From positions 1 through 42,056 of IMG/VR virus record IMGVR_UViG_2917413769_000001: a stretch of DNA of 42,056 nt; one strand, given 5' to 3'. This DNA comes from a virus (lineage: Duplodnaviria > Heunggongvirae > Uroviricota > Caudoviricetes). The notes below the pieces were generated by a model that searched no databases, had not been told where the DNA came from, and worked only from the letters and a program-made list of their open reading frames with translations. A program made the translations under genes and the position numbers. Below are positions 17,926 through 39,039 of the stretch, one piece after another (positions within the stretch are counted from its first letter, which is position 1; each line of letters begins with the position of its first letter).

Positions 17926-19251
17926 TTACAGTGCCTCGTAGTTGCCGAACGCGATGATCAGCCCGTATGTGTAGCAATCGAAGAGGTCATCAGCGCGTTT
18001 GTGCGCTTTCGGGTCTGCCAGGTGGAAACCGGCGATTTGGTGGATGAGGTGGTTTGCAGTCTTTTTCTTGAATTCAACAGTCTTGTCATAGGCGGGTTGA
18101 GCGATTTTCGCTTTCTCCTGCCAGTGATGACCGGACGCCAAAACTGCCCTTTCATCTTTACCTTTCGCCGTCAGAGCCGATTTGATGGGCCTCATGTCCC
18201 AATCTTCGGTTTCGGCTTTCTGGTTGAGGATAGCGCCCATTGCAGCGTCTTCCATGAAAACACCCTGGCTGCCAAGACGAGGGCGGCAAATCTTCGCCAG
18301 CCGATCGAGGTTGTCGTACACGCTCGGCATGTATTCCGGAAGCAGCGACGCCTTAATCTGAGTGATATCCCAGTCGATAATCGTGAGCCGTGGCTCGGAG
18401 TAGGTTTCCTCATAGGCAAAGTAAACGAACCCGGTACCATCGTTTTCGGTACCGCCTTTTAGCGCGGTATCAGCTACGGCAAAGATCATGTCGCAGGTAT
18501 CTGGCATCGCTACAGGCTGGCCATCCACCAGCAGCTTGTTCACGTCCAGCAATGCATCTTTCGACCAGTCGATAAATTCAGCCTCAAACTCCTGCTGAAA
18601 CACCCTCGGATCATTTGTCTGACGCTCTTTTTCCAGTTCATCGGGTGGGACAAATGGATTTCCGGATGTGGGGGCATGATGCTCGTAAAAACCTAATTCT
18701 TTATCGTGACAAAGAGCATAGAAAAAATTGCTATCGTCGATTCCGTCAGGTGTCGAAAACACCCACGTTTTCCCGCGCCGAGTAAGTAACGTTGGCTTAA
18801 TTGATTTCGGCCAAACTTCTTCAAGCATTTCGGGTGATTTGGTGAACGCGGCTTCATCTATAAGCGCAATATCGTATTCACGCCCACGACCAGCCAGCTT
18901 ATTATCGTTTGTCACCCAGAAATCTATTTTTCCACCGTTCTTCAGTAGAATTCGCTTTTCACTACGCGACTGGTTTTTTATAAGAGGGCCGAGAATCTCA
19001 ATCAGTGCATCAAATATTTCCTGATATTGACGATATTCAGCAGTGAAGATGCCAACTTTCCCTCCTTCTTTGCGGTCCGTTCCCGGCTTGTGAAATTTAT
19101 GCGTTACATATGAACACGCCAAACTCACCAGCATTACGGTCTTTCCATAGCGACGACCACAGCGCACAACATTATATTGATGCTGGCGACCTTCTCTCCA
19201 GATGTGAAATTGTCCAGCATGGAGCTTTGGAATAAAAATTTCCTTTGCCAT
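17926..19251 (-). CDS. Terminase large subunit
   Basis: 441 aa; Walker A-like CGRRYGKT and Walker B-like IALIDEAAF; followed by portal. Confidence 0.8.
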   Translation of the reverse strand: MAKEIFIPKLHAGQFHIWREGRQHQYNVVRCGRRYGKTVMLVSLACSYVTHKFHKPGTDRKEGGKVGIFTAEYRQYQEIFDALIEILGPLIKNQSRSEKRILLKNGGKIDFWVTNDNKLAGRGREYDIALIDEAAFTKSPEMLEEVWPKSIKPTLLTRRGKTWVFSTPDGIDDSNFFYALCHDKELGFYEHHAPTSGNPFVPPDELEKERQTNDPRVFQQEFEAEFIDWSKDALLDVNKLLVDGQPVAMPDTCDMIFAVADTALKGGTENDGTGFVYFAYEETYSEPRLTIIDWDITQIKASLLPEYMPSVYDNLDRLAKICRPRLGSQGVFMEDAAMGAILNQKAETEDWDMRPIKSALTAKGKDERAVLASGHHWQEKAKIAQPAYDKTVEFKKKTANHLIHQIAGFHLADPKAHKRADDLFDCYTYGLIIAFGNYEAL

Positions 19252-19255
19252 TTAT

Positions 19256-19909
19256 TTATACCTGTAATCTCTCTCCGTCAGGAGTATCAAGTGCCCCGTG
19301 AACAACGATGGTGTCATTCGAATCACCATTACGGAGGTTTTCGATTTCGGCTTTGATTTTTTCATTGCTCAGGCGGACACGTTCGATTTCAAGTAACCGA
19401 AGTTCTCTATCCTGTTCGCTGGAGGACAGATTGTGGAAAGCTGCGAGGTTTTTCAATGCAGCGTCCTGGTCACGAGTCATGACCTCGATACCGAATTTAG
19501 TTTTCTTCACCCCGGCCATAAGACGACGAGCAGGTCCAACTAAATCACGCGTATCCGCAAGGAAAACATCCTCGATGCCCTCACCTGCACATTTAGGGCA
19601 ATCAGGGTTGGGGTCGTCGTTAGCAACGAAACCAAATCCACCAGACTGATCCGGAGGCGGTTTGCTGTCATTCGCTGCTTTAGCGGCTGCCTTGTCGTAC
19701 TCGCTTTCATCAATCCACTGATAGTGGTTATCGAATCCCCAGCAGTAACGGCAGCAAACACGGCGCATCTGAGAAATCTCACCGGGATCCGCAATCGCTA
19801 TTTCATGCCAGTGCCTGAGAATGTCCTGAGCGTTTAATATTGCCTGCTCGGTTAACTGTTCGATGCCCTGGTTAATGGCTCTCGCTACCGTTGGCTTGCG
19901 ATACAGCAT
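19256..19909 (-). CDS. Terminase small subunit-like protein (core; N-terminal HTH continues upstream in this frame without a start codon)
   Basis: 217 aa with CCRYCWG...CPKCAG Cys motifs; in-frame upstream extension to 20062 encodes LSDKEKLFVSYYLECRNKYEAYRKAGY, a TerS-type HTH, but is closed by a stop at 20063-20065. Confidence 0.5.
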   Translation of the reverse strand: MLYRKPTVARAINQGIEQLTEQAILNAQDILRHWHEIAIADPGEISQMRRVCCRYCWGFDNHYQWIDESEYDKAAAKAANDSKPPPDQSGGFGFVANDDPNPDCPKCAGEGIEDVFLADTRDLVGPARRLMAGVKKTKFGIEVMTRDQDAALKNLAAFHNLSSSEQDRELRLLEIERVRLSNEKIKAEIENLRNGDSNDTIVVHGALDTPDGERLQV

Positions 19910-20003
19910 CCGGGCGTTTCTGTCTCCCCCGGTATAACCTGCCTTCCGATATGCCTCATACTTGTTGCGGCACTCCAGATAGTAGGAAACGAAAAGTTTT
20001 TCT

Positions 20004-20294
20004 TTATCGGAGAGATCTGCGCAAAAAGGGGATCTTTCGGGATTCTGTTTTTGCGCAGTTTTTTAATGCCCTTCTCTTACCCTTCCCTTGTTCTGGCGCG
20101 GCCTTATCAGGATTCTGCGCGATAACCTGCGCAGTTTTTTTTTGCGCATTATTCTGCGCAGACTTTTTTATGTAGCGGCGGGCTGTGTCGTAAACCAATC
20201 CCTGCTGTTCACACCAGTCTTTCATCTTTATTCCCGTACTGGCGTGAGCGGCAGCAAACTGAGATTGCAGCTCCTTCCAGTCGGGTTTGCTCAT
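20004..20294 (-). CDS. HTH DNA-binding protein with AQ-repeat tail; possibly the start of a frameshifted small terminase
   Basis: ATG at 20294 overlaps upstream stop (ATGA); N-terminal HTH-like segment KDWCEQQGLVYDTARRYI; C-terminus low complexity encoded by CTGCGCA repeats. Confidence 0.4.
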   Translation of the reverse strand: MSKPDWKELQSQFAAAHASTGIKMKDWCEQQGLVYDTARRYIKKSAQNNAQKKTAQVIAQNPDKAAPEQGKGKRRALKNCAKTESRKIPFLRRSLR

Positions 20295-20557
20295 CAATCA
20301 CTGTCCTTACTGCGCGAAAGCCTCATCAGCTCGTTATAAACGTAGACGTACACGTCACCGTTACGGGCACGTTTGTATAACGCCCCTCGCAATTTGGCCT
20401 CGCCTTTTGCCGTCCCGATACGGATGGCCTCACGAAATAGCGCTAGCCTCTCCCTGTCCTGCCTCAGTTCGTCCATATCAATATCGAGCACGTCTGCAAT
20501 CTGCTGTTCCGTCAAACGACGGGCGGCCAACGCCTCTATTTTTTCACGAACGAACAT
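20294..20557 (-). CDS. Small HTH DNA-binding protein (possible packaging-specificity protein)
   Basis: Internal ATG at 20557 (MFVREK...) avoids overlap with upstream gene; sigma-r4-like HTH LTEQQIADVLDID. Confidence 0.4.
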   Translation of the reverse strand: MFVREKIEALAARRLTEQQIADVLDIDMDELRQDRERLALFREAIRIGTAKGEAKLRGALYKRARNGDVYVYVYNELMRLSRSKDSD

Positions 20558-20618: not shown

Positions 20619-21236
20619 TTAAATCCGGCAAAAGGTATAGCTACCAATACCATCTCGACCAAGCTCGCTTTCGCGGGTGTTGTGTTCCACCAGCTTAAAC
20701 CCGTTAGCTGCAAACCATTTTAAGAGCCCATCATGAGTCCAGTACCAGATATGCTCATCACGGCGGAAATGACGGGACCGCAGTACATGCTCTGCGCACT
20801 CAAAGATGGGTACTGAAACGAATACCCATTTTTCCGCCCGCGCGATGGCAACCTCTGGCCGATCGATATGTTCCAGGGAATCCCAGAACGTCAGCGCCGG
20901 ATATCGGTCATGGTATAAATGCGCCCACTGTCCTCGCGCTTTCAGCCACTCAACGCCCGCAGGATTTACATCAAATCCCTTGGTATCCGGACGTGCTTCA
21001 ACAAATTGCCCGGCACCGATGCCAACATCCAGAACAACACCGCTGTAATGTCGCGAAACTAACTGGACCCGTGCCGCAGTCAACTCTCTACCTAGTTCGG
21101 TATCAGCCAGTTGCTGGTATCGTGAAAAATAATCTTCATCGTACGGTCGATGGGCCTTCGGCACCGGGTAACGACCAATACCCAATTCAGGCAGCCACGC
21201 CAGCCCATGTTTGATTTGCTCAGAGAAATACTTCAT
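20619..21236 (-). CDS. Class I SAM-dependent methyltransferase
   Basis: 205 aa; motif I VLDVGIGAGQF and downstream FWDSLEHI. Confidence 0.6.
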   Translation of the reverse strand: MKYFSEQIKHGLAWLPELGIGRYPVPKAHRPYDEDYFSRYQQLADTELGRELTAARVQLVSRHYSGVVLDVGIGAGQFVEARPDTKGFDVNPAGVEWLKARGQWAHLYHDRYPALTFWDSLEHIDRPEVAIARAEKWVFVSVPIFECAEHVLRSRHFRRDEHIWYWTHDGLLKWFAANGFKLVEHNTRESELGRDGIGSYTFCRI

Positions 21237-22140
21237 GCGCCCACTCGCTTACGTGATGCCTGATATACGTTATCGATAAAGGGCTGCACCCGTGAAGAAA
21301 GCCCACTGATTGTTTTGTCGCAAGCGTGTTTCATCTCCTGGCACCGGCAATAGTTATCCGGGTATACAAACAACGCGCGGGATAAATCCATACAACGGGG
21401 ATCGGTAACTTTAGAGTGGTGGTTATTGCCGCCATTGCCGCCCTGCAAGCAGATCATCGGTTTACCGTAAGCAAGCGCAGCGTGCATGACGACACATGCA
21501 CCCGTAAGCACTATGTCGGCCCTTTCCACCAGCGCCAGCATCTGCGTGATAGAAAGCTGGCCATCATGCAGCTTCCGGTGCGCGAAAGGTTCCAGATCCG
21601 GTATCCACTCCAGACCAGGCTCGTTATCTGCAATGCTGATAACATGAAAACCGCGTATTGCCAGTAACCGGGAAACTTCATCCACATATTTGTTCAGCGG
21701 CCCGCGGCTGGCATTGTGCCACTCGGTACGTTCTGTGGTGGGACGTATAACGGCTATTGGCTTACCATCGGTACCGGAATATCCGGCGGAGGGTAATGCG
21801 GTAAATCCATCGCTGCCGGCAGCGTACCAAATTGCTGCTGCATCGCGTCGAATATGCTCCCGGCCTGAAGATGGCCATTGCCGTAAAAAATGCGCTGACG
21901 GGGAATGCCTGGCGGTTCAGATTCAAATCTCACCGATGTGCTTTGCTCGTTCTTACGCTGCGTCCGCAATGGCGTATTGGCCTTCACGAAATGCAGGTTC
22001 GGGATCCCGGCGTAAATTTCCGGAAGTGGCGTTCTCAGCCATACCTCTTTTCCCTGTTTGACCAGCGCCTTAATGAAGCAGCGCTGGTTGATATTGTCAC
22101 CGATGCCGTGCATCCCGTCTAAGTACAGTTTTCCAGGCAT
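21233..22140 (-). pseudogene. GT9-family (heptosyltransferase-like) glycosyltransferase, interrupted by a frameshift
   Basis: N-terminal ORF (to 21754) has GIGDNINQRCFIKAL and AMQQQFGTLPAAMDLPHY; C-terminal frame, open from 21916, has PIAVIRPTTERTEWH and DIVLTGACVVMHAALAYGKPMICLQGG, both resembling WaaC-type motifs; the two frames overlap 21757-21916. Confidence 0.5.
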
Positions 22141-22678
22141 AAAGTGCCGCCTCAAGTGGTAAACGTTTAAAGCAAGTCAGCGCGGTCTCGCGTGACGCGT
22201 TGATAATCTCCACGCCCGGCAGAGCGCCAGCGAGAGAAGCAAAGTCGGTATGCCAGCGCCCTACTTCGCGCGGTACCGGATTATGCATCGTTGCCGGGTG
22301 GCGCCCATGCCAGTGTGCGCCGTTCACCAGGGTGCAGTCGTATCCGAGAAGAATCACCCTCTCTGCGCCGAGGTGGGCGGCGAGTTGAATGGCACGCTTC
22401 CCGGAGTTGAACGGCCCATTTTCTGATGGGGTGAAAAGCTTCACGCCGAACCGGGAATGAGCCCGTTTGCTCTGAGTCCATAGTTCGGCGCTGGTTTCCA
22501 GCGAATCGTAGTAATGGTCCCACCAGGTGAAATCGGCGGCGAAGATGTGCTGACAGTCTGGTACGGCCCTCCAGCTCGAATTAACTGCAATGACCGGGTA
22601 ACCGGAGCCGGAGGCCTGTGCGCAGTCGTTCGCCGTCAGCGACGGGCCGCTGGCGATGCAGATAAAGGTTTGGGTCAT
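22097..22678 (-). CDS. GT42/DUF115-like Rossmann-fold protein (sialyltransferase-like motifs)
   Basis: 193 aa; N-terminal ICIASGPSL and later SGKRAIQLAAHLGAERVILLGYDC resemble GT42 (Cst-II-type) IIAGNGPSL and SG...A..LG...I.L.G.D motifs, recalled from memory. Confidence 0.35.
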   Translation of the reverse strand: MTQTFICIASGPSLTANDCAQASGSGYPVIAVNSSWRAVPDCQHIFAADFTWWDHYYDSLETSAELWTQSKRAHSRFGVKLFTPSENGPFNSGKRAIQLAAHLGAERVILLGYDCTLVNGAHWHGRHPATMHNPVPREVGRWHTDFASLAGALPGVEIINASRETALTCFKRLPLEAALYAWKTVLRRDARHR

Positions 22679-22736: not shown

Positions 22737-23138
22737 TCAGTCTTTAAGATATTTATCGGTGTTATGTACCCGCTCGCTCATAAGCAGCTCTGCACCTGTA
22801 CTGGTTACGATGGCGCTGTGGTGAGGGTGAACATTTTCAGCCATCCACTTAATCAGTGGCTCTGCTGCTTCTGCAAAAGAGTCAGCGTCCTGTTCGTAAA
22901 CCGGACTGCATTTGATTTCATCAACCCGATAAAGCCGAATGGCTTGAAGTTCTAAGGAATCAGGGGTCGGGGCAAGAGAAATAAATTCGCTACCGTGAAG
23001 TTTTTGCGGGTTGACCTGATCCTTTGAATAGCCGGTGAAGAATGGTTGTCTTTTTTCCGCCAACATTTGCGTTATCACAGATTTAGGCTGCTGCTCGAAT
23101 AGCTCTACTTTCCAGTATTTGACCAACTTAATTTCCAT
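22737..23138 (-). CDS. Hypothetical protein
   Basis: 133-aa ORF between HNH endonuclease and the glycosyltransferase/MTase cassette. Confidence 0.3.
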   Translation of the reverse strand: MEIKLVKYWKVELFEQQPKSVITQMLAEKRQPFFTGYSKDQVNPQKLHGSEFISLAPTPDSLELQAIRLYRVDEIKCSPVYEQDADSFAEAAEPLIKWMAENVHPHHSAIVTSTGAELLMSERVHNTDKYLKD

Positions 23139-23200
23139 TATTTGTTCCTGTCACTTTGTCGTAGGTTCGTTCGCAGCTTGATCCTGCTGCATAGCGTTCA

Positions 23201-23716
23201 TCAGCCTCTTTTGCGAATTTTCCCGCCATTATTTGCAAATTCACCGTGAGCGGCTTCTCGGAATTCACGCACAGCCTTCTCAGCATCACCTATATCAGTG
23301 AAGCAACCAAGGTGACGAGCATTCCCCTTTATTTTGCATTTCGCGTGCCATTTCTTGTCCCCTTTATGCCAGCAAACACCTTTTATTCCTGAGGTATTAT
23401 TGCGCGACAGCCTTGTGTTTCGCATATTTTCCACTGGAGAGGCGTTACGAAGATTACAAATCCGATTATCATTCTTCACGCCATTGATATGGTCGACCTG
23501 CTCAGACGGCCATATTCCGTTGGTGTAAAACAAAGCCAACCGATGCGCTAAATAAGCCAAGGAATTAATCCTGATCTGGACATATCCATTAGTATCTGGC
23601 GAGCCCGCAATACAACCCGCATGAACACCACCGCGAGATTCAAGCCAATAAAAAACCCCGGTATCGGAGTTATATTTCAACAAGCGTTTAAGCTGTTGTT
23701 GATCAATTACGGCCAT
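23201..23716 (-). CDS. HNH endonuclease with AP2 DNA-binding domain
   Basis: HNH_3-type motif VDHINGVKNDNRICNLRNA; AP2-like GVCWHKGDKKWHAKCKIKGNARHLGCF. Confidence 0.8.
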   Translation of the reverse strand: MAVIDQQQLKRLLKYNSDTGVFYWLESRGGVHAGCIAGSPDTNGYVQIRINSLAYLAHRLALFYTNGIWPSEQVDHINGVKNDNRICNLRNASPVENMRNTRLSRNNTSGIKGVCWHKGDKKWHAKCKIKGNARHLGCFTDIGDAEKAVREFREAAHGEFANNGGKIRKRG

Positions 23717-27907: not shown

Positions 27908-28194
27908 GCTTTTACGATCCCCTCTTTCAGCCAGATAACCTGCGTTCTCGCCATACCTTCCAGCGCGCATTCTTTTGCATACTCAGCATCGACAAAATGT
28001 GTACGGCGGTCGATCTCGTCGTGACAGGCAGAGCATGCAATGGTGGCAATCAGGTCAGGCGGTTTGATTCCGGTGCCACATAACCCGGCCAGGCGAATGT
28101 GCGCCAGTACAGACGTTTCCGGGTTACCGTTGCAGACATTTGGAATTCTTACCTGGCACTCTCTTCCCTTCGCCGCTTTACTTAATTTACTCAT
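27904..28194 (-). CDS. YbcO-like protein (DUF1364-type, Cys-rich)
   Basis: Start [14 protein letters not shown] at 28194; Cys motifs; immediately upstream of rusA as in DLP12-type nin regions. Confidence 0.5.
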
Positions 28195-28451
28195 TGAACA
28201 TGCCCCCACGTTTCACCACGGATGACACAACCAACAGCGCCCCTTCCGATATTTACCCATCGACTAACAGATCTAACTCTGCCGAAATTGCTAACTTCAT
28301 ACAGGCCCTCGAAACCCAGAACAGGCCGCCATCGCTCATTGCTTTCATCAATGTGGCATTCCCGGCCACGCGCAGCTTTTCGAAGATTAGTCATGTTCAC
28401 CCCCAGACCTTTTGTCGGAAGGTTCTCGGCGTCCGTGCCGGACGTCCGCAC
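28191..28451 (-). CDS. Truncated NUMOD4-motif homing-endonuclease-like fragment
   Basis: WRPVLGFEGLYEVSNFGRVRS matches the NUMOD4 signature; preceded by MTNLRKAARGRECHI, which echoes the YbcO N-terminus; no HNH catalytic motif before the stop. Confidence 0.35.
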   Translation of the reverse strand: MRTSGTDAENLPTKGLGVNMTNLRKAARGRECHIDESNERWRPVLGFEGLYEVSNFGRVRSVSRWVNIGRGAVGCVIRGETWGHVQ

Positions 28452-28602
28452 TCCGGCAATTTCACGCTGACCGTCCAGGTAAGGAAATCAGAATTGAGGC
28501 TTTTTTCGGTCCTGATACCGCGCGCCCGATACCGGGCCATCAGTTCGTCAGCCTGCTCGGTTGTGCATTCGGGATGGTGAAAAAAAGAATGTTTCATCTC
28601 CA

Positions 28603-29206
28603 TCACCCTGCAAAGCTCAGCAACTGAGAAGCGGCGTTCTCCGCGTCGCGCTGCGTGGCAAAAGTGCGGGACAATATCCAGCGCCACAGAACATCGAGCG
28701 CGGCTTTATACAGCTGCTGGAACTCGATTTCGTCCATATTTGCGAATGAGATACTGCGGGGATGTTTGCGAAGTGTGCCGTCTGGCAACTGAATGGCGTC
28801 GTAATGCCCGTCCTCGACGATAACCCATGCGCGATAAGCATCGAATGATTTGCAGAGGCTGATCCCGTTCGTTACGCGGCGGTTTGCGACCTGATCCAGA
28901 TACTGTTCAGCAGCATCCAGAAGAGCGCCACCGTTGCCACCATATGCAGCCAGATAACTGGCATAGCCGGTAACCAGCTTGCGCTCATTGCTGGATATTG
29001 CGCCGCCTGTAGGTTCCCAGTATTCGAAACCGAGATTGAGGAGTGCGAAGAAGCGACGGTGAAACGCCGGATTGCGCACTTTTTTTAAACTCAGCCACCA
29101 GTACGTCGCCGAGTTTGATTTTTGATTGCAGAATATCGCTGGTCTCGGGCGTAGCCGGGATCAGTATTCCTGTGTAGTGCTTAATGAGTTGTAGTTCATG
29201 CGCCAT
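28603..29206 (-). pseudogene. nin-region protein (YbcN/DUF1367-like?) split by frameshift at an A7 run
   Basis: Upstream ORF (start 29206) and downstream 158-aa ORF overlap in different frames; removing one A from the run at 29080-29086 joins ...AEFKK to VRNPAFHRRFF... Confidence 0.35.
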
Positions 29207-35036: not shown

Positions 35037-37919
35037 ATGGAATTCTTCTACGTGGTTAAAGCCACTCAGAAATCTGGCAAACCAGATGCAGTCGTCTGGT
35101 TCACTGCGAAAACCGAAGCCCGCGCCAATCTTCGACTCGACGTTGCGCTGGAAGAGGCAGAAATCGAAACCGGTCGCGGGCAGGACTACAACAAACCTGC
35201 ACGTACTAATTTTCCGGTAGTTGATGATCTTCCAGAAGAAGGCGTTGTGGATTTAACCTGGTGCGATCGCTATGAGCTGAAAGAGGACGGCATCAACTGG
35301 GAAAAAATAGTGGTGGCCGAAGTACCCGCGGCGACGGAAGTCACCGCGAACGGCGGCGAAACCATTGACCCTGATCTCAGGGTTGATGCGGACGACGACG
35401 ATAAAACCGAATATCCGGTTGCAGAAATGGCCTTCAGCCGTCGACTGCTCTCGCAGTTCATCAGCGATGCGACAGCCCATCACATCAATCATTCTCAGCG
35501 TGTTCAGATTATCAAGCTGTCACAGGATGATGAAAACCACTATGTCCAAAACCTGCTTCTTGCGGTCAGAAATGTCCCCGAGCTGGAAAAGTTAAGTACG
35601 GCGCAGCTCTGGAAATTCACTGACGCAATCAAAACTGTTTTCCATACAGAAAAACGTCATGAGCTGTCAATCGTCCTCCGTTTCACCAGAATATGGGCTG
35701 CAAATGATTACATTGACCGTGGCATCCTGGCTCGCGAGTGGGCTGCCGGTAATCGCATCAGTAGCGTGCAGCGTACTGATTCCGGAACCAATGCCAACGG
35801 CGGTTACGTCACTGACCGTGGCGAAGGTGCACACCACACGCTGGATACTCTCGATTCAGAGATTGCCTGCGCCCTTCTGCCTATGGACTTCAACCACTTC
35901 GAGATCCCGGGCAGCATTCTTCGTCGCGCTAAAGAAATCGTGACCAAAAAAGAAGAGCCGTGGAAATCATGGAGCACCATTCTGCGCAATCAACCCGGCG
36001 TTCTTGGCGTTAACCGCACAGCTATTTTTAACCTGATACGTATCGCGCCGGAAAATATTCACCTGACGCCGGTTGCTCATCTGGAGTTCGTTAACCAGAC
36101 CATGACAGCTGAGTTCAATTCCGCGGTTGAGTTATTGCCATTGCATGAAGCTGAGCCCGCAACACAGGGTATTCCCCAACCTGAAAGTAAGGAGCCTCCG
36201 CGCAAATCCTTCTGCACTCACGAAGAGTACCTGAAACGCGTGTGTGAAGAAGGAGCACGCCGCCGCGCAGAGGAGGCGGCAGCACAACCACATAAAGCCG
36301 AACAAGAACTGGTTAAAAATGTCGGAAACGGAATATTCGACGTTACGGCTTTACTGCAGAACTCAGCAACTCATGGCACGAAAAAGGCTACGGAAACCAC
36401 CAGCAATGTGCAGGTTCAAGAAACTGTCAGTGATGAAAAACAGGTTGGTAATGAAATGCAGTCAGGCGAAAGCAGTCTGGAAACTGGTGAAGAGTCACAT
36501 CCCGGCCAGCAGGCCGATGTAAACCAAAATACGGAATCTGTCGCCCAAAATAGCGATTCTGTAAACCAGACTGAACCAGTTTTGGCACACGCCGAGCCAG
36601 AGGCGCAATCTGACGAACAAGCGGTTGTTTACCCCGCTTACTTCGAGCCTGGTCGCTATGAAGGTCTGCCGAACGAGGTTTACCACGCCGCCAACGGCAT
36701 CAGTTCCACCCAGGTAAAAGATGCGCGCGTTTCGCTGATGTACTTCAATGCGCGCCACGTTGAGAAAACCATCGTCAAAGAGCGATCCGCAGTGCTGGAC
36801 ATGGGAAACCTGGTACATGCGCTGGCGTTGCAGCCAGAGCAGCTCGATGAAGAATTTAGCGTTGAACCCGTAATTCCGGAAGGCGCATTTACCACCACGG
36901 CAACGATCCGCTCGTTTATTGATGCGTACAACGCCAGCCTGCCAGCGCAACTGAGCGCAGACGATATCAAAGCTTTGCTGGAAAAGTACAACGCCACCCT
37001 GCCAGCGCTGGTGTCGCTGGGCGCTGGCCTGGATGAAACGGCGCAGAACTATATGGCGCTGCCAGCTGAATTCCAACGTATCGATGCAGACCAGAAGAAG
37101 ACAGCAACAGCAATGAAGGCGTGCATCAAAGAGTACAACGCCACCCTGCCAGCGCAGATTAAAACCAGCGGCAGCCGCGACGCGCTACTCGAACAACTTG
37201 CGATTATCAATCCTGACCGGGTCGCGCAGGAAGCTCAGAAGCTGCAACCGCTGAAAGTCTCTGGCACGAAGGCCGATCTGATTCTGGCAGTGAAAGCTGT
37301 CAACCCGGAAGCCGTATTTGCCGACGAACTGATCGATGCATGGCGCGAAAACCCGGAAGAAAAAGTACTGGTTACCCGCCAGCAACTGAGTACCGCATTA
37401 GCCATTCAGAAAGCCCTTCTTCAGCACCCGACCGCCGGCAAGCTGCTGACTCACCCGAGCCGAGCCGTTGAGGTGAGCTACTTCGGGTTTGACGACGAAA
37501 CTGGGCTGGAAGTCCGTGTGCGTCCGGATCTGGAAATCGACCTGGACGGCGTGCGTGTCGGCGCAGACCTGAAAACCATCAGTATGTGGAGTGTTAAGCA
37601 GGAAAGCCTGCGCGCCAGGCTACACCGGGAAATTATTGAACGTGATTATCACCTGAGCGCGGCTATGTACTGCGAAACCGCGGCGCTGGATCAGTTCTTC
37701 TGGATATTCGTCAACAAAGACGAGAACTACCACTGGATCGCCATTATTGAGGCATCCGCAGACCTGCTGGAACTGGGCATGCTTGAGTACCGCAAAATGA
37801 TGCGCGCTATTGCAACCGGCTTCGACACTGGGGAATGGCCAGCGCCGATCATTGATGATTACACCGACGAACTTAACGACTTCGACCTGCGCCGCCTTGA
37901 AGCGCTGCGACTGGCTTAA
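35037..37919 (+). CDS. recE: RecE-like exonuclease VIII (C-terminal PD-(D/E)xK nuclease)
   Basis: 960 aa; N-terminal NFPVVDDLPEEG and DRGILAREWAAGNRIS...GGYVTDRGEG resemble RecE as recalled; C-terminal VRPDLEIDLDG...ADLKT nuclease motif; followed by RecT-like gene. Confidence 0.75.
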   Translation: MEFFYVVKATQKSGKPDAVVWFTAKTEARANLRLDVALEEAEIETGRGQDYNKPARTNFPVVDDLPEEGVVDLTWCDRYELKEDGINWEKIVVAEVPAATEVTANGGETIDPDLRVDADDDDKTEYPVAEMAFSRRLLSQFISDATAHHINHSQRVQIIKLSQDDENHYVQNLLLAVRNVPELEKLSTAQLWKFTDAIKTVFHTEKRHELSIVLRFTRIWAANDYIDRGILAREWAAGNRISSVQRTDSGTNANGGYVTDRGEGAHHTLDTLDSEIACALLPMDFNHFEIPGSILRRAKEIVTKKEEPWKSWSTILRNQPGVLGVNRTAIFNLIRIAPENIHLTPVAHLEFVNQTMTAEFNSAVELLPLHEAEPATQGIPQPESKEPPRKSFCTHEEYLKRVCEEGARRRAEEAAAQPHKAEQELVKNVGNGIFDVTALLQNSATHGTKKATETTSNVQVQETVSDEKQVGNEMQSGESSLETGEESHPGQQADVNQNTESVAQNSDSVNQTEPVLAHAEPEAQSDEQAVVYPAYFEPGRYEGLPNEVYHAANGISSTQVKDARVSLMYFNARHVEKTIVKERSAVLDMGNLVHALALQPEQLDEEFSVEPVIPEGAFTTTATIRSFIDAYNASLPAQLSADDIKALLEKYNATLPALVSLGAGLDETAQNYMALPAEFQRIDADQKKTATAMKACIKEYNATLPAQIKTSGSRDALLEQLAIINPDRVAQEAQKLQPLKVSGTKADLILAVKAVNPEAVFADELIDAWRENPEEKVLVTRQQLSTALAIQKALLQHPTAGKLLTHPSRAVEVSYFGFDDETGLEVRVRPDLEIDLDGVRVGADLKTISMWSVKQESLRARLHREIIERDYHLSAAMYCETAALDQFFWIFVNKDENYHWIAIIEASADLLELGMLEYRKMMRAIATGFDTGEWPAPIIDDYTDELNDFDLRRLEALRLA

Positions 37920-38629
37920 TGGAGGATTTGACCATGCAAAATACTAACATCATCACGACTGAGCAGGCTCCAAATACCATTTCTGCCAGTAACGCAGTAT
38001 TCAACGTTCAGGCTCTCGGGCAGTTGACCGCCTTTGCTGACTTGATGGCGCAATCAGCGGTAACCGTTCCTGCGCACCTGGCGGGTAAGCCCGCCGACTG
38101 TATGGCGATCGTCATGCAGGCGATGCAGTGGGGCATGAACCCCTACGCCGTTGCGCAGAAAACACATCTGGTTAACGGTGTGCTGGGCTATGAGGCTCAA
38201 CTGGTCAATGCCGTGATTGCCAGCTCAAACGCCATCAAGGGCCGGTTCCATTATCGCTATGGCGGAGAGTGGGAGCGCTGCACCCGCACGCAGGAAGTCA
38301 CGCGGGAGAAACACGGGAAGAACGGGAAATACAATGTCACCGAGCGCGTGCGCGGATGGACTGATGAAGACGAAATCGGCCTTTACGTCGAGGTTGGCGC
38401 CGCCCTGCGCGGTGAGACTGAAATCACCTGGGGTGAGCCGATCTACCTGTCAGGTGTTGTCACTCGCAACTCGCCGCTTTGGGTGTCGAACCCGAAACAA
38501 CAGATCGCGTACCTGGCTGTGAAGTATTGGGCCCGCCTCTACTGCCCTGAGGTCATTCTTGGCGTCTACAGCCTGATGAAGTTGATCAGCGTGAAGAGCG
38601 CGAAATTAACCCGGCACCACAGCGTATGA
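37919..38629 (+). CDS. recT: RecT/Bet-family single-strand annealing protein
   Basis: 236 aa; QWGMNPYAVAQKTHLVNGV resembles the Bet/RecT QYGLNPW region; start overlaps recE stop. Confidence 0.55.
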   Translation: MEDLTMQNTNIITTEQAPNTISASNAVFNVQALGQLTAFADLMAQSAVTVPAHLAGKPADCMAIVMQAMQWGMNPYAVAQKTHLVNGVLGYEAQLVNAVIASSNAIKGRFHYRYGGEWERCTRTQEVTREKHGKNGKYNVTERVRGWTDEDEIGLYVEVGAALRGETEITWGEPIYLSGVVTRNSPLWVSNPKQQIAYLAVKYWARLYCPEVILGVYSLMKLISVKSAKLTRHHSV

Positions 38630-39039
38630 GTCTGACCGAAATCGCCGATGGAAAAGCCGATGCGTCCACAGGCTCACAGGAACCAGTAGTGAGCATCGAC
38701 GCTATCGCCGATGGGTTCCGCGCACGCATCGAAACAGCAGAGACACTGGAATCAGCCTCCGCTGTCGGTAACGACATCAACGAAGCAAAAGCCACGCTCG
38801 GCACTGCGCTGTTCACCGAGCTGAAGAATAAGGCGACACGCCGCTATCACCAGGTTAACGCCAAAAACAAAGTTGACGCAGTGATCAACTCGCTGCCGCA
38901 GCCGGGTGAACCTGATGCTGCAGAGCGGTTCGCCGAAGCTGAGCGAACGCTGGCCGCCGCGAAACGCCATCTCGGCGACGAGCTGCACGACAAGTACAGC
39001 ATCACCCTCACGGATATGAAACCGGAATACGTGGGCTAA
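38626..39039 (+). CDS. Hypothetical acidic protein
   Basis: 137 aa; ATG overlaps recT stop (ATGA). Confidence 0.35.
   Translation: MSLTEIADGKADASTGSQEPVVSIDAIADGFRARIETAETLESASAVGNDINEAKATLGTALFTELKNKATRRYHQVNAKNKVDAVINSLPQPGEPDAAERFAEAERTLAAAKRHLGDELHDKYSITLTDMKPEYVG

Follow-up and report, generated by a model that had tools for sequence, protein, structure and literature searches.

Why should a prophage carry its small-terminase gene in two pieces? In the 42,056-nt stretch of DNA analysed here (the window), which comes from Escherichia sp. E1130, terS is divided between two minus-strand ORFs, an upstream one of 96 aa and a downstream one of 217 aa that holds the Terminase_2 domain (Table 1). 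The initial annotation had described the layout and proposed that one TerS gene is broken by a frameshift inside a slippery, homopolymer-rich repeat tract; sequencing error, decay of the terminase and programmed slippage were offered as causes, and a packaging role was suggested for the repeats. We reproduced both ORFs, together with the T5, T6 and T9 runs of the plus strand (20048-52, 20059-64 and 20135-43). The description of a stranded TerS HTH was also accurate: between the in-frame TAA and the ATG, which is the first ATG/GTG/TTG after that stop, the 217-aa frame reads KTAQKQNPERSPFCADLSDKEKLFVSYYLECRNKYEAYRKAGYTGGDRNAR and has no start codon. The 217-aa fragment begins within helix 3 of the Terminase_2 HTH and is without both DNA-binding modules of the protein; NCBI annotates it as 240 aa from a CTG start (P0029). 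The upstream fragment, annotated as TGC25839.1, ends in the out-of-frame tail TESRKIPFLRRSLR before its stop. The plus strand also has antisense ORFs, at 19891..20175 and 20088..20339.

Table 1. Features of the terS region and its surroundings, in window coordinates
Feature	Position	Strand	Remarks
terL	17926..19251	-	441 aa; directly downstream of terS; Pfam Terminase_6N
Repaired terS	19256..20294	-	~343 codons without the extra A; reads …ALKNCAKTDPERSPFCADLSDKEK…
Downstream fragment	19256..19909	-	217 aa; begins at ATG 19909
Terminase_2-type HTH	19910..20014	-	LSDKEKLFVSYYLECRNKYEAYRKAGY…; stranded upstream of the ATG
Upstream fragment	20004..20294 (ORF to 20297)	-	96 aa; start ATG 20294; N-terminal HTH module and linker
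Distal hexamer pair	20018..20057		TGCGCA at 20052-57 and 20018-23
Extra A, GAT to GAAT	20043/20044	-	Coding strand ACAGAATCCC; ACAGATCC or CCTGATCCC in relatives
Spacer between clusters	20058..20115		58 nt; candidate pac-cut region, by analogy with P1
TAA closing the TerS frame upstream	20063..20065	-	
Proximal hexamer cluster	20116..20160		TGCGCA at 20155-60, 20143-48 and 20128-33; CGCGCA at 20116-21
A9 tract between hexamers 2 and 3	20135..20143	-	Same length in intact relatives
N-terminal three-helix HTH module	20160..20294	-	Residues 1-45; recognition helix …YDTARRYIK

We looked for the intact form of the gene by protein search, because neither phage records nor complete E. coli genomes gave a megablast match to the region. 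In each of the 88 relatives retrieved (64 distinct) the protein is encoded by one ORF, 321-369 aa long, and the repaired TerS is 90-95% identical over its whole length to single-ORF TerS proteins of 342 aa among the relatives. Homologous phages with two separate genes, which the initial annotation had named as evidence against a break, were thus the opposite of what we found: the homologues carry one gene. When terS was compared with that of L002, L004, L005, L011, L012, L013 and L014, the only uncompensated indel was one extra A; taking one A out of the window sequence gives ACAGATCC, as found in L013. Among ~15 billion proteins the 96-aa product stands alone, in a 90% cluster of one member. 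When contigs were scanned by pattern for further alleles with a 6-nt gap, the metagenome set gave none and the viral set gave in-frame alleles only.

The place of the break differs from that first proposed. The A6, A9 and A5 runs have the same lengths in the window as in the intact relatives, and the extra base lies outside them. Deleting one base at 20059-20064, as had been suggested, does open a fused frame; the lesion is not there, however, as the relatives have the same A6. We dropped this run as the lesion site because in the alignment the relatives' upstream frame continues past it as …KNCAKPDPERS…; loss of one A from it gives …KTAQKQNP…, compared with …KNCAK… in the intact relatives, and its positions 20063-64 belong to the TerS-frame stop codon. 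We conclude that this lambdoid-type prophage has an ordinary small-terminase gene made in one piece, which is broken, as the initial annotation held, by a frameshift, here of the +1 type, and that this break is a non-programmed indel. The extra base, its uniqueness and the intact state of the gene in relatives are direct observations.

Read without the extra A, TerS would begin at its N-terminus with a three-helix HTH module, followed by a linker of ~45 disordered residues and then by a Terminase_2 body of the SPP1/SF6 type. Pfam Terminase_2 (PF03592) matches the repaired protein with 70.5 bits (cut-off 26.1) over profile positions 1-129, starting at LSDKEKLF, and the 217-aa fragment with 31.9 bits from profile position 40 only. 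The repaired protein also matches phrog_51, "terminase small subunit" (E 1e-50), and, by phmmer, SF6 G1P (PDB 3zqp; E 8e-4, aligned from DLSDKEKLF). We used an AF2 monomer model of a relative, P0001, that is 93% identical to the repaired TerS. It places helices at residues 6-20, 24-31 and 35-41 of the predicted N-terminal module (pLDDT 77-88) and at 96-108, 111-117 and 124-132 of the predicted Terminase_2 HTH, and it predicts a disordered linker; the whole-chain model is poor (pTM 0.29), the usable parts being these two HTH modules and the linker. In Foldseek the model matched the SF6 TerS DNA-binding domain 4zc3 (TM 0.84, rmsd 1.4 Å, 56 columns), with no other significant match. The N-terminal module is likewise found at the head of Stx-phage TerS (49% identity) and of the PacA of the P1-like phage D6 (38% identity). 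By blastp it matches P1 PacA (E 1e-4), with NTARRY in common, and on these sequence comparisons the module is shared with PacA. terS ends at 19256 and terL begins at 19251, with the portal gene next; TerL is 72% identical to that of Rac-SA53 and 63% identical to that of a Yersinia phage, and has distant matches to T4-like gp17.

Of the causes first proposed for the break, sequencing error and a decayed terminase remain the two live explanations. We infer that the extra A most likely arose as an error of base calling or assembly in the Ion Torrent data; a very recent inactivating mutation is less likely. The E1130 genome (PDIL00000000) was sequenced by Ion Torrent, single-end, at 50x, and assembled with MIRA and SPAdes (PMC6639607). 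The platform is indel-prone, and its assemblies are liable to single-base indels and frameshifts (PMC12046094). The 42 kb contain two more uncompensated indels of a single base, one breaking a 302-aa gene at ~21769 and the other breaking recT at ~38573. A suspected third split, among NUMOD4 ORFs at 28.2-28.7 kb, was not borne out; relatives also have small separate genes there. Conservation holds on both sides of each break: the two pieces of terS are 89% and 79% identical to the intact relative chosen for comparison, the 302-aa gene is 94-95% identical to its intact relative on either side, and for recT, whose only relative is distant, the two sides show 47% and 63% identity. All other indels in the blocks compared are compensated, multiples of three or intergenic.

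If instead all three single-base indels were real, the prophage would be a recently inactivated, packaging-defective remnant and terS a pseudogene, which we consider unlikely but a serious contender. Defective prophages are common. The long homopolymers of the tract have their expected length, so that where errors are likeliest the sequence shows no general inaccuracy. In published Ion Torrent data, consensus errors prefer runs of at least 3 and cluster in longer homopolymers (mean length 5.5), which counts against an artefact; here A9, A6 and A5 are correct, and the errors would be 1-to-2, 2-to-1 and 1-to-0 calls. The modern error rate (~14.5 discrepant loci/1748) would moreover put the expected number of errors in the window below one (PMC12046094). 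Against real mutation, 3/3 lesions are single-base indels, and the blocks compared hold no nonsense codon, no deletion or other larger coding-region lesion and no IS insertion. Where structural genes are of the same sequence type as in L002, their proteins are 97-100% identical to those of L002, and therefore show no sign of drift. The GAAT allele, finally, was found in no other genome or metagenome searched. With three single-base frame breaks in a 42-kb Ion Torrent draft, the split TerS, 302-aa gene and RecT should not be taken as biology without the reads, and the value of the frameshift itself is one of caution.

The repeats in which the break had been placed proved more informative. TGCGCA is not enriched in the 42 kb as a whole (21 copies observed, 19 expected), but five copies fall within 20018-20160, whereas any other 240-nt window holds at most two. 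The copies of the proximal cluster lie at terS nt 135, 147, 162 and 174 and the whole array spans nt 135-277; the distal pair makes up an imperfect inverted repeat of 18 nt, with the lesion inside it. Across 53 distinct sequences, TGCGCA averages 6.5 copies per 240-nt linker and 0.076 per 240 nt outside it, an 86-fold difference, and in each of two whole phage genomes no other cluster of the array's motif is as dense as the array itself. This arrangement resembles the pac site of P1, a cis site that likewise lies in the 5' part of the small-subunit gene, just after a homologous HTH module (…NTARRY[IL][KR]), and has two hexamer clusters around a spacer, 4+3 in P1 and 4+2 here. In P1 pacA, TGATCA/G occurs at nt 194-233 (HEX4) and 324-352 (HEX3), with the annotated cleavage sites (nt 276-285) and an IHF site between them, and synonymous mutation of the hexamers lowers packaging ~9-fold (PMC10028697). 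By analogy, we infer that the array would be this phage's pac site, of the P1 type with a new hexamer. The N-terminal HTH module of TerS would recognise the TGCGCA hexamers, and the terminase would cut near the array, at a presumed position, from which headful packaging would begin. Our search of the literature, incomplete in its coverage, found no prior description linking TGCGCA to pac or packaging.

N-terminal modules with ARRYIK go with TGCGCA and those with AKRYIK go with TGCGAA/TTCGCA, and a third, different N-terminal module goes with GGGGCA/TGCCCC. Within the module, the ARRYIK and AKRYIK classes are told apart by residue 39 of the third helix and by no other position. In these sequences, then, the hexamer motif covaries with the type of HTH, although each of the classes may be a single clade. 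P1 PacA has ARRY yet uses TGATCA, and therefore residue 39 is not the whole specificity code. The hexamers might alternatively bind a factor other than TerS, such as the protein of the 87-aa ORF just upstream of terS, which matches phrog_309 "terminase small subunit", or a late regulator; or they might be a methyltransferase or restriction target, since TGCGCA contains GCGC, a methyltransferase gene lies ~0.3 kb upstream of terS and the P1 hexamers are also methylation targets (PMC10028697). This we judge improbable: the class of motif follows the module that is fused to TerS, and arrays are present in a Yersinia phage (L008) and in 933W (L096) without an annotated gene of the 87-aa type directly upstream, that position being taken by other genes or a gap.

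Very improbable, in our estimation, is the idea that the hexamer tract is a mere low-complexity, AQ-rich basic linker repeat, spread by duplication and with no role at the DNA level. A tandem duplication of 27 nt can be seen, disorder is predicted for the linker and most copies do encode Ala-Gln. One hexamer is nevertheless kept in three frames, in which it encodes AQ, CA and LR/MR: the frames hold 254/32/60 copies, and at least two of them are used in 46/53 sequences. In the intact relatives of the window, the two distal copies read Cys-Ala, in another frame than the four Ala-Gln copies. Synonymous sites are fixed as well. Ala is encoded by GCG in 257/271 of the A[QH] dipeptides of the linker (95%) versus 236/1361 downstream Ala codons (17%), and the base before this GCG is T in 264/271 (97%). 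The motif, moreover, changes with the HTH module and the residues follow it (FCAD with TGCGCA, FCPE with TGCCCC), and the homologous array of P1 has been proven to act as pac (PMC10028697). Runs of at least 8 A also recur in the linkers, in 30/64 distinct relatives and in all three codon phases. Comparison of these sequences shows that the hexamers are conserved at the DNA level, implying a constraint on DNA rather than on protein. The suggestion that the repeat tract is packaging-related is thus strongly supported by the frames, the synonymous sites, the covariation with the HTH and P1 pacA. Taken jointly, a non-programmed indel that is most likely an artefact, and a TGCGCA array that would act as a P1-type pac site, are probably the correct reading of the locus.

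P1 uses TGATCA/G, whereas the hexamer here is TGCGCA (TGCGAA or GGGGCA in sister lineages). No copy here contains GATC, and therefore Dam-methylation control would not apply; with TGCGCA in place of the Dam-type TGATCA/G, the array would be a variant of the P1-type pac rather than a strict member. The rest of TerS is Terminase_2 and not PacA-like, and TerL, unlike PacB, is a T4-like Terminase_6N protein. With SPP1/SF6 G1P the protein shares its C-terminal two-thirds (the Pfam and 3zqp matches, and the predicted HTH superposed on 4zc3), and the pac of those phages likewise extends over the start of terS and includes direct repeats (PMC4737164). In contrast to G1P, TerS here has ~93 extra N-terminal residues, made up of a second HTH module and the linker, and a short motif is conserved at the base level. 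The box repeats of SPP1/SF6 do not drive binding by the DNA-binding domain, recognition being thought to be conformational (PMC4737164), which counts against the pac reading. P22 is a headful packager with pac inside the terS coding sequence (PMC9611059), but its pac is a single asymmetric 22-bp site without a hexamer array, and its TerS (gp3) belongs to an unrelated fold family. The TerS of 933W has the same N-terminal module (49% identity), directly followed by four hexamers at 12-nt spacing in the repetitive peptide IDHEIDHKTDHEIDHD; it differs in that its hexamer is YGATCA, as in P1, and its C-terminal body has no Terminase_2 match.

Programmed recoding, by a +1 ribosomal frameshift (for example at TCC_C or CCC_U) or by transcriptional slippage in an A/T run so as to make full-length TerS, can be dismissed almost entirely: 0/88 relatives have the two-ORF layout, none needs recoding, and the split allele is unique to one assembly. 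We considered a +1 shift within the 56-nt overlap of the two frames. The frame can be restored only at 20007-20062, between the TAA at 20063-20065 and the stop of the 96-aa ORF at 20004-20006. The overlap does hold rare codons (CGA and AGA) as well as a stretch of C4T5, and a +1 shift at TCC-CGA would give …TESERSPFCADL…, near the wild-type sequence; only runs of at most 5 lie within the rescue window, however, there is no prfB-like motif with an upstream SD, and an Rfam scan of both strands of 18.5-21.5 kb matched no family. Slippage at A9 (20135-43) was rejected: this run lies upstream of the TerS-frame stop, and therefore slippage there meets that TAA and cannot fuse the frames. The hexamer repeats are not a recoding signal. 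The tail chaperone G/GT, prfB, dnaX and mxiE likewise have two overlapping frames with homopolymer runs nearby, but their layout is conserved in relatives and their slippery sites are defined, whereas the terS split occurs in one assembly only and outside the runs.

What the array may mean reaches further than the break. How small terminases recognise pac DNA is still an unresolved question (PMC9611059, PMC4737164), and the comparative data here implicate a repeated, short and base-specific motif together with a covarying small domain, with a proven homologue in P1. We lean, with some reserve, towards the view that a widespread class of temperate enterobacterial phages shares one portable packaging cassette, made up of the 45-residue TerS HTH module and a cognate hexamer array within the codons of the disordered linker. 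The class may include this lineage, prophages of Klebsiella, Yersinia and Serratia, Stx phages and P1. If this is true, TerS and pac would here form a simple, sequence-specific system in which specificity swaps are built in, of a kind not yet obtained from the classical pac phages P22, SPP1 and SF6. It opens the way to direct binding and specificity-swap experiments and to the rational design of packaging signals for phagemid delivery. Pac sites would become predictable in many prophages, including Stx phages, and therefore so would hot spots of transduction. Judged from the aligned sequences, TGCGCA, TGCGAA(T), GGGGCA and YGATCA would be natural specificity variants of the cassette, and one specificity switch appears to track a single residue of the recognition helix, R39K accompanying the change of C5 to A in the hexamer.

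In the window, the small terminase gene (terS) is interrupted by an ordinary single-base frame break; everywhere else, the gene is one piece. As the initial annotation described, the ATG of the 217-aa ORF is the earliest start codon available past an in-frame TAA, and the frame between that stop and the ATG encodes a TerS-type HTH lacking a start codon (…PERSPFCADLSDKEKLFVSYYLECRNKYEAYRKAGYTGGDRNAR); the AQ-rich end of the upstream 96-aa ORF is coded by (C)TGCGCA copies together with runs of A9, A6 and A5. The two ATGs are 385 nt apart, which puts the downstream frame at +1 to the upstream frame. The alignment to Pfam Terminase_2 begins at profile position 40 for the 217-aa ORF and at position 1 for the fused protein, at LSDKEKLF, the point where alignment with the SF6 small terminase (3zqp) also begins.

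A protein search with the fused TerS as query found hundreds of small terminases, each about 342 aa long and encoded by a single ORF, with up to 92% identity over 99% of the query. Their alignment reads …GKGKRRAVKNCAKPDPERSPFCADLSDKEK…, implying that the upstream frame is kept through the A6 run and KNCAK. In DNA alignments the A6, A9 and A5 lengths are equal in the window and seven relatives, and the sole uncompensated terS difference is an extra A, where the window reads ACAGAATCCC, relative L013 ACAGATCC and the others CCTGATCCC; without it, the window protein reads …ALKNCAKTDPERSPFCADLSDKEK…. The one-base deletion in A6 proposed earlier also opens the frame, but is not the difference between the window and working genes. 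In another relative's protein, P0014 (NCBI, 301,763-bp contig; alignment A1), several compensated frame changes fall exactly at the tract's A runs (KSLRRIMRKKTAQ, AVKTAQNLIPKDPFC) and one more near the C-terminus, which shows homopolymer sequencing errors in terS.

The terS break is probably technical in origin. The window corresponds to contig PDIL01000010.1 of Escherichia sp. E1130 and is identical to locus L001 over 9256-29978. E1130 was sequenced on Ion Torrent (single-end reads, 35-400 nt, 50x) and assembled with MIRA and SPAdes (PMC6639607); the platform tends to produce single-base indels that put genes out of frame, and its assemblies are over-represented among rejections for 'many frameshifted proteins' (PMC12046094). 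Two further uncompensated single-base indels emerged when the remainder of the window was compared with relatives. A 302-aa gene (phrog_6804), intact in relative L002, is broken by a missing G (GGTACC-GATGG versus GGTACCGGACGG), and the RecT-family recombinase gene recT, which in E. coli P27_L1_05.20 is a single 363-aa ORF, lacks one base and falls into ORFs of 236 and 137 aa (TACAGC-CTGATG versus TACAGTGCCGATG in that strain). These three lesions, one base each, lie in three unrelated modules; no nonsense codons or larger coding-region lesions were seen in the blocks compared, and coding sequence either side of each break is still recognisably conserved, so base-calling error fits better than decay. 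We therefore favor an artefact as the source of the extra A. A real recent mutation is a less likely source, even though the long runs in the tract, Ion Torrent's most error-prone spots, are correct, and in a modern benchmark the error runs average 5.5 in length and errors are rarer than here (PMC12046094); against it stand the absence of any larger lesion in those blocks and structural proteins that, where the sequence type is shared with L002, are 97-100% identical.

Programmed slippage, also raised initially, is extremely improbable: a single ORF of 321-369 aa, never two separate genes, is present in all 88 relatives whose terS DNA was fetched (64 distinct), among them plaque-forming phage isolates of Yersinia and Klebsiella; the 96-aa product is the sole member of its 90% cluster among ~15 billion proteins; pattern scans found no other alleles with the 6-nt gap; and no Rfam family matched. 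The frame could be rescued solely between 20062 and 20007, where there are only short runs and no recognised +1 signal, and slippage at A9 would terminate because A9 is upstream of the TerS-frame stop.

Features of the terS region and of the other interrupted or inserted loci (window positions)
Feature	Position	Strand	Remark
terL	17926-19251	-	
Downstream terS ORF	19256-19909	-	217 aa
Upstream terS ORF	20004-20294	-	96 aa
Extra A	20043/20044	-	terS break
A5 run	20048-20052	-	
A6 run	20059-20064	-	
In-frame TAA	20065-20063	-	
A9 run	20135-20143	-	
87-aa gene	20297-20557	-	overlaps terS start
302-aa gene	21233-22155	-	ORFs 21754-22155 and 21233-21685; G missing at ~21769/21770
HNH_3 gene	23201-23716	-	putative insertion, 23131-23716
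Repeated DUF2514 codons	23131-23226		downstream of HNH_3 insert
Two small overlapping ORFs	28191-28687	-	
recT	37919-39039	+	ORFs 37919-38629 and 38626-39039; base missing at ~38573 (38572-38574)

The suggestion that the repeat tract is related to packaging was borne out by hexamer constraint, by covariation with the N-terminal three-helix HTH (the N-module) and by a P1-like array. The window's 21 copies of TGCGCA match chance expectation; five of them, with one CGCGCA, are packed into 143 nt (terS nt 135-277) as four copies, a 58-nt spacer and two copies, and other 240-nt windows hold at most two. In 53 distinct relatives that share this N-terminal sequence type, TGCGCA density per 240 nt is 6.5 in the terS linker versus 0.076 outside. 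The copies are read as Ala-Gln (254), Cys-Ala (32) or Leu/Met/Val-Arg (60), with at least two frames used in 46 of 53 sequences; GCG codes Ala in 257 of 271 linker A[QH] dipeptides versus 17% of downstream Ala codons, and T precedes the Ala codon in 264 of the 271. The three frames and fixed synonymous sites imply that the constraint acts on DNA. Within each of two complete phage genomes, no other cluster of the motif is as dense as the array (8/24 and 5/22 copies; next best 2). In an AF2 model of a relative's TerS, P0001, the stretch encoded by the array is a disordered linker (residues 46-89, pLDDT ~30) that joins two HTH modules. A runs of 8-9, such as the window's A9, occur in the linkers of 30 of 64 distinct relatives (L011-L090), in all three codon phases; usually they lie between two hexamer copies (…GCAAAAAAAAACT…), and they are found across three motif classes. 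This spread of phases and classes marks them as a conserved DNA feature, not merely Lys codons, possibly serving DNA bending.

The hexamer covaries with the N-module. Modules with …ARRYIK… pair with TGCGCA, those with …AKRYIK… pair with TGCGAA/TTCGCA, in many cases arranged as the palindrome TGCGAATTCGCA, and a different module (MSKPDEKAIERDY…LRYMAQKNGW) pairs with GGGGCA/TGCCCC. In this third class even the conserved FCAD (TTTTGCGCAGAT) becomes FCPE (TTTTGCCCCGAA). The motif of one class is hardly ever found with the module of another. Residue 39, within the predicted third helix in the P0001 model, is the sole position in the 44-residue module that discriminates the ARRYIK and AKRYIK classes. 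The hexamer repeats point to a testable recognition code.

The same N-module heads the small terminase of Stx phages (933W, 49% identity) and PacA of the P1-like phage D6 (38%), and P1 PacA aligns with it, NTARRY being common to both. P1 pac is a 161-bp site with seven hexamers inside pacA, and synonymous hexamer mutation lowers packaging ~9-fold (PMC10028697). In the annotated P1 record, TGATCA/G lies at nt 194, 201, 213, 228 and 324, 336, 347 of pacA; between these two groups lie the IHF site, at nt 256-268, and the mapped cleavage sites, at nt 276-285. From the shared N-module and the same position and geometry of the array, we infer that the window tract is a pac site of the P1 type built on another hexamer. 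The N-module would bind the hexamers, terminase would cut nearby, and packaging would be headful. Unlike in P1, the hexamer has no GATC and is therefore not expected to be under Dam control, and the array is attached to an SPP1/SF6-type Terminase_2 body and a T4-like TerL. A non-exhaustive literature search found no earlier description of a TGCGCA-type pac array. In 933W terS (L096 1801-2607), four YGATCATGA repeats (nt 141-185, 12-nt spacing, encoding IDHEIDHKTDHEIDHD) directly follow the shared HTH module; in Stx phages they may form a Dam-sensitive pac array. One TGCGCA also occurs at nt 259.

terS lies in the late operon of a lambdoid-type prophage, which is read on the minus strand in the order lysis genes, transferase and methyltransferase module, 87-aa gene, split terS, terL, portal gene and head genes. 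The 87-aa gene is conserved (85 aa in L002) and has no Pfam match; it aligns with the central part of phrog_309 'terminase small subunit' (E 1e-15), and its product may be a third small DNA-binding packaging partner. In many relatives, ParB_N-like and PF20691 (TAGT) genes lie directly upstream of terS (L002 8247-9735; L007 3090-4740; L009 594-2310); they are absent from the window's prophage, whose terS-proximal block differs. The 302-aa gene's module, between the lysis genes and terS, also contains an MptE-like or sialyltransferase-like gene and a Methyltransf_23 gene. Of the two small ORFs lying between DUF1367 and ybcO, one matches NUMOD4, and the pair may be a homing endonuclease remnant; a frameshift there was not established, E. 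coli relatives likewise having a small separate gene. The HNH_3 endonuclease gene, absent from L002, lies within the 3' end of the DUF2514 (Rz-like) gene, whose last 32 codons are repeated downstream of it, and looks like a homing-endonuclease insertion.
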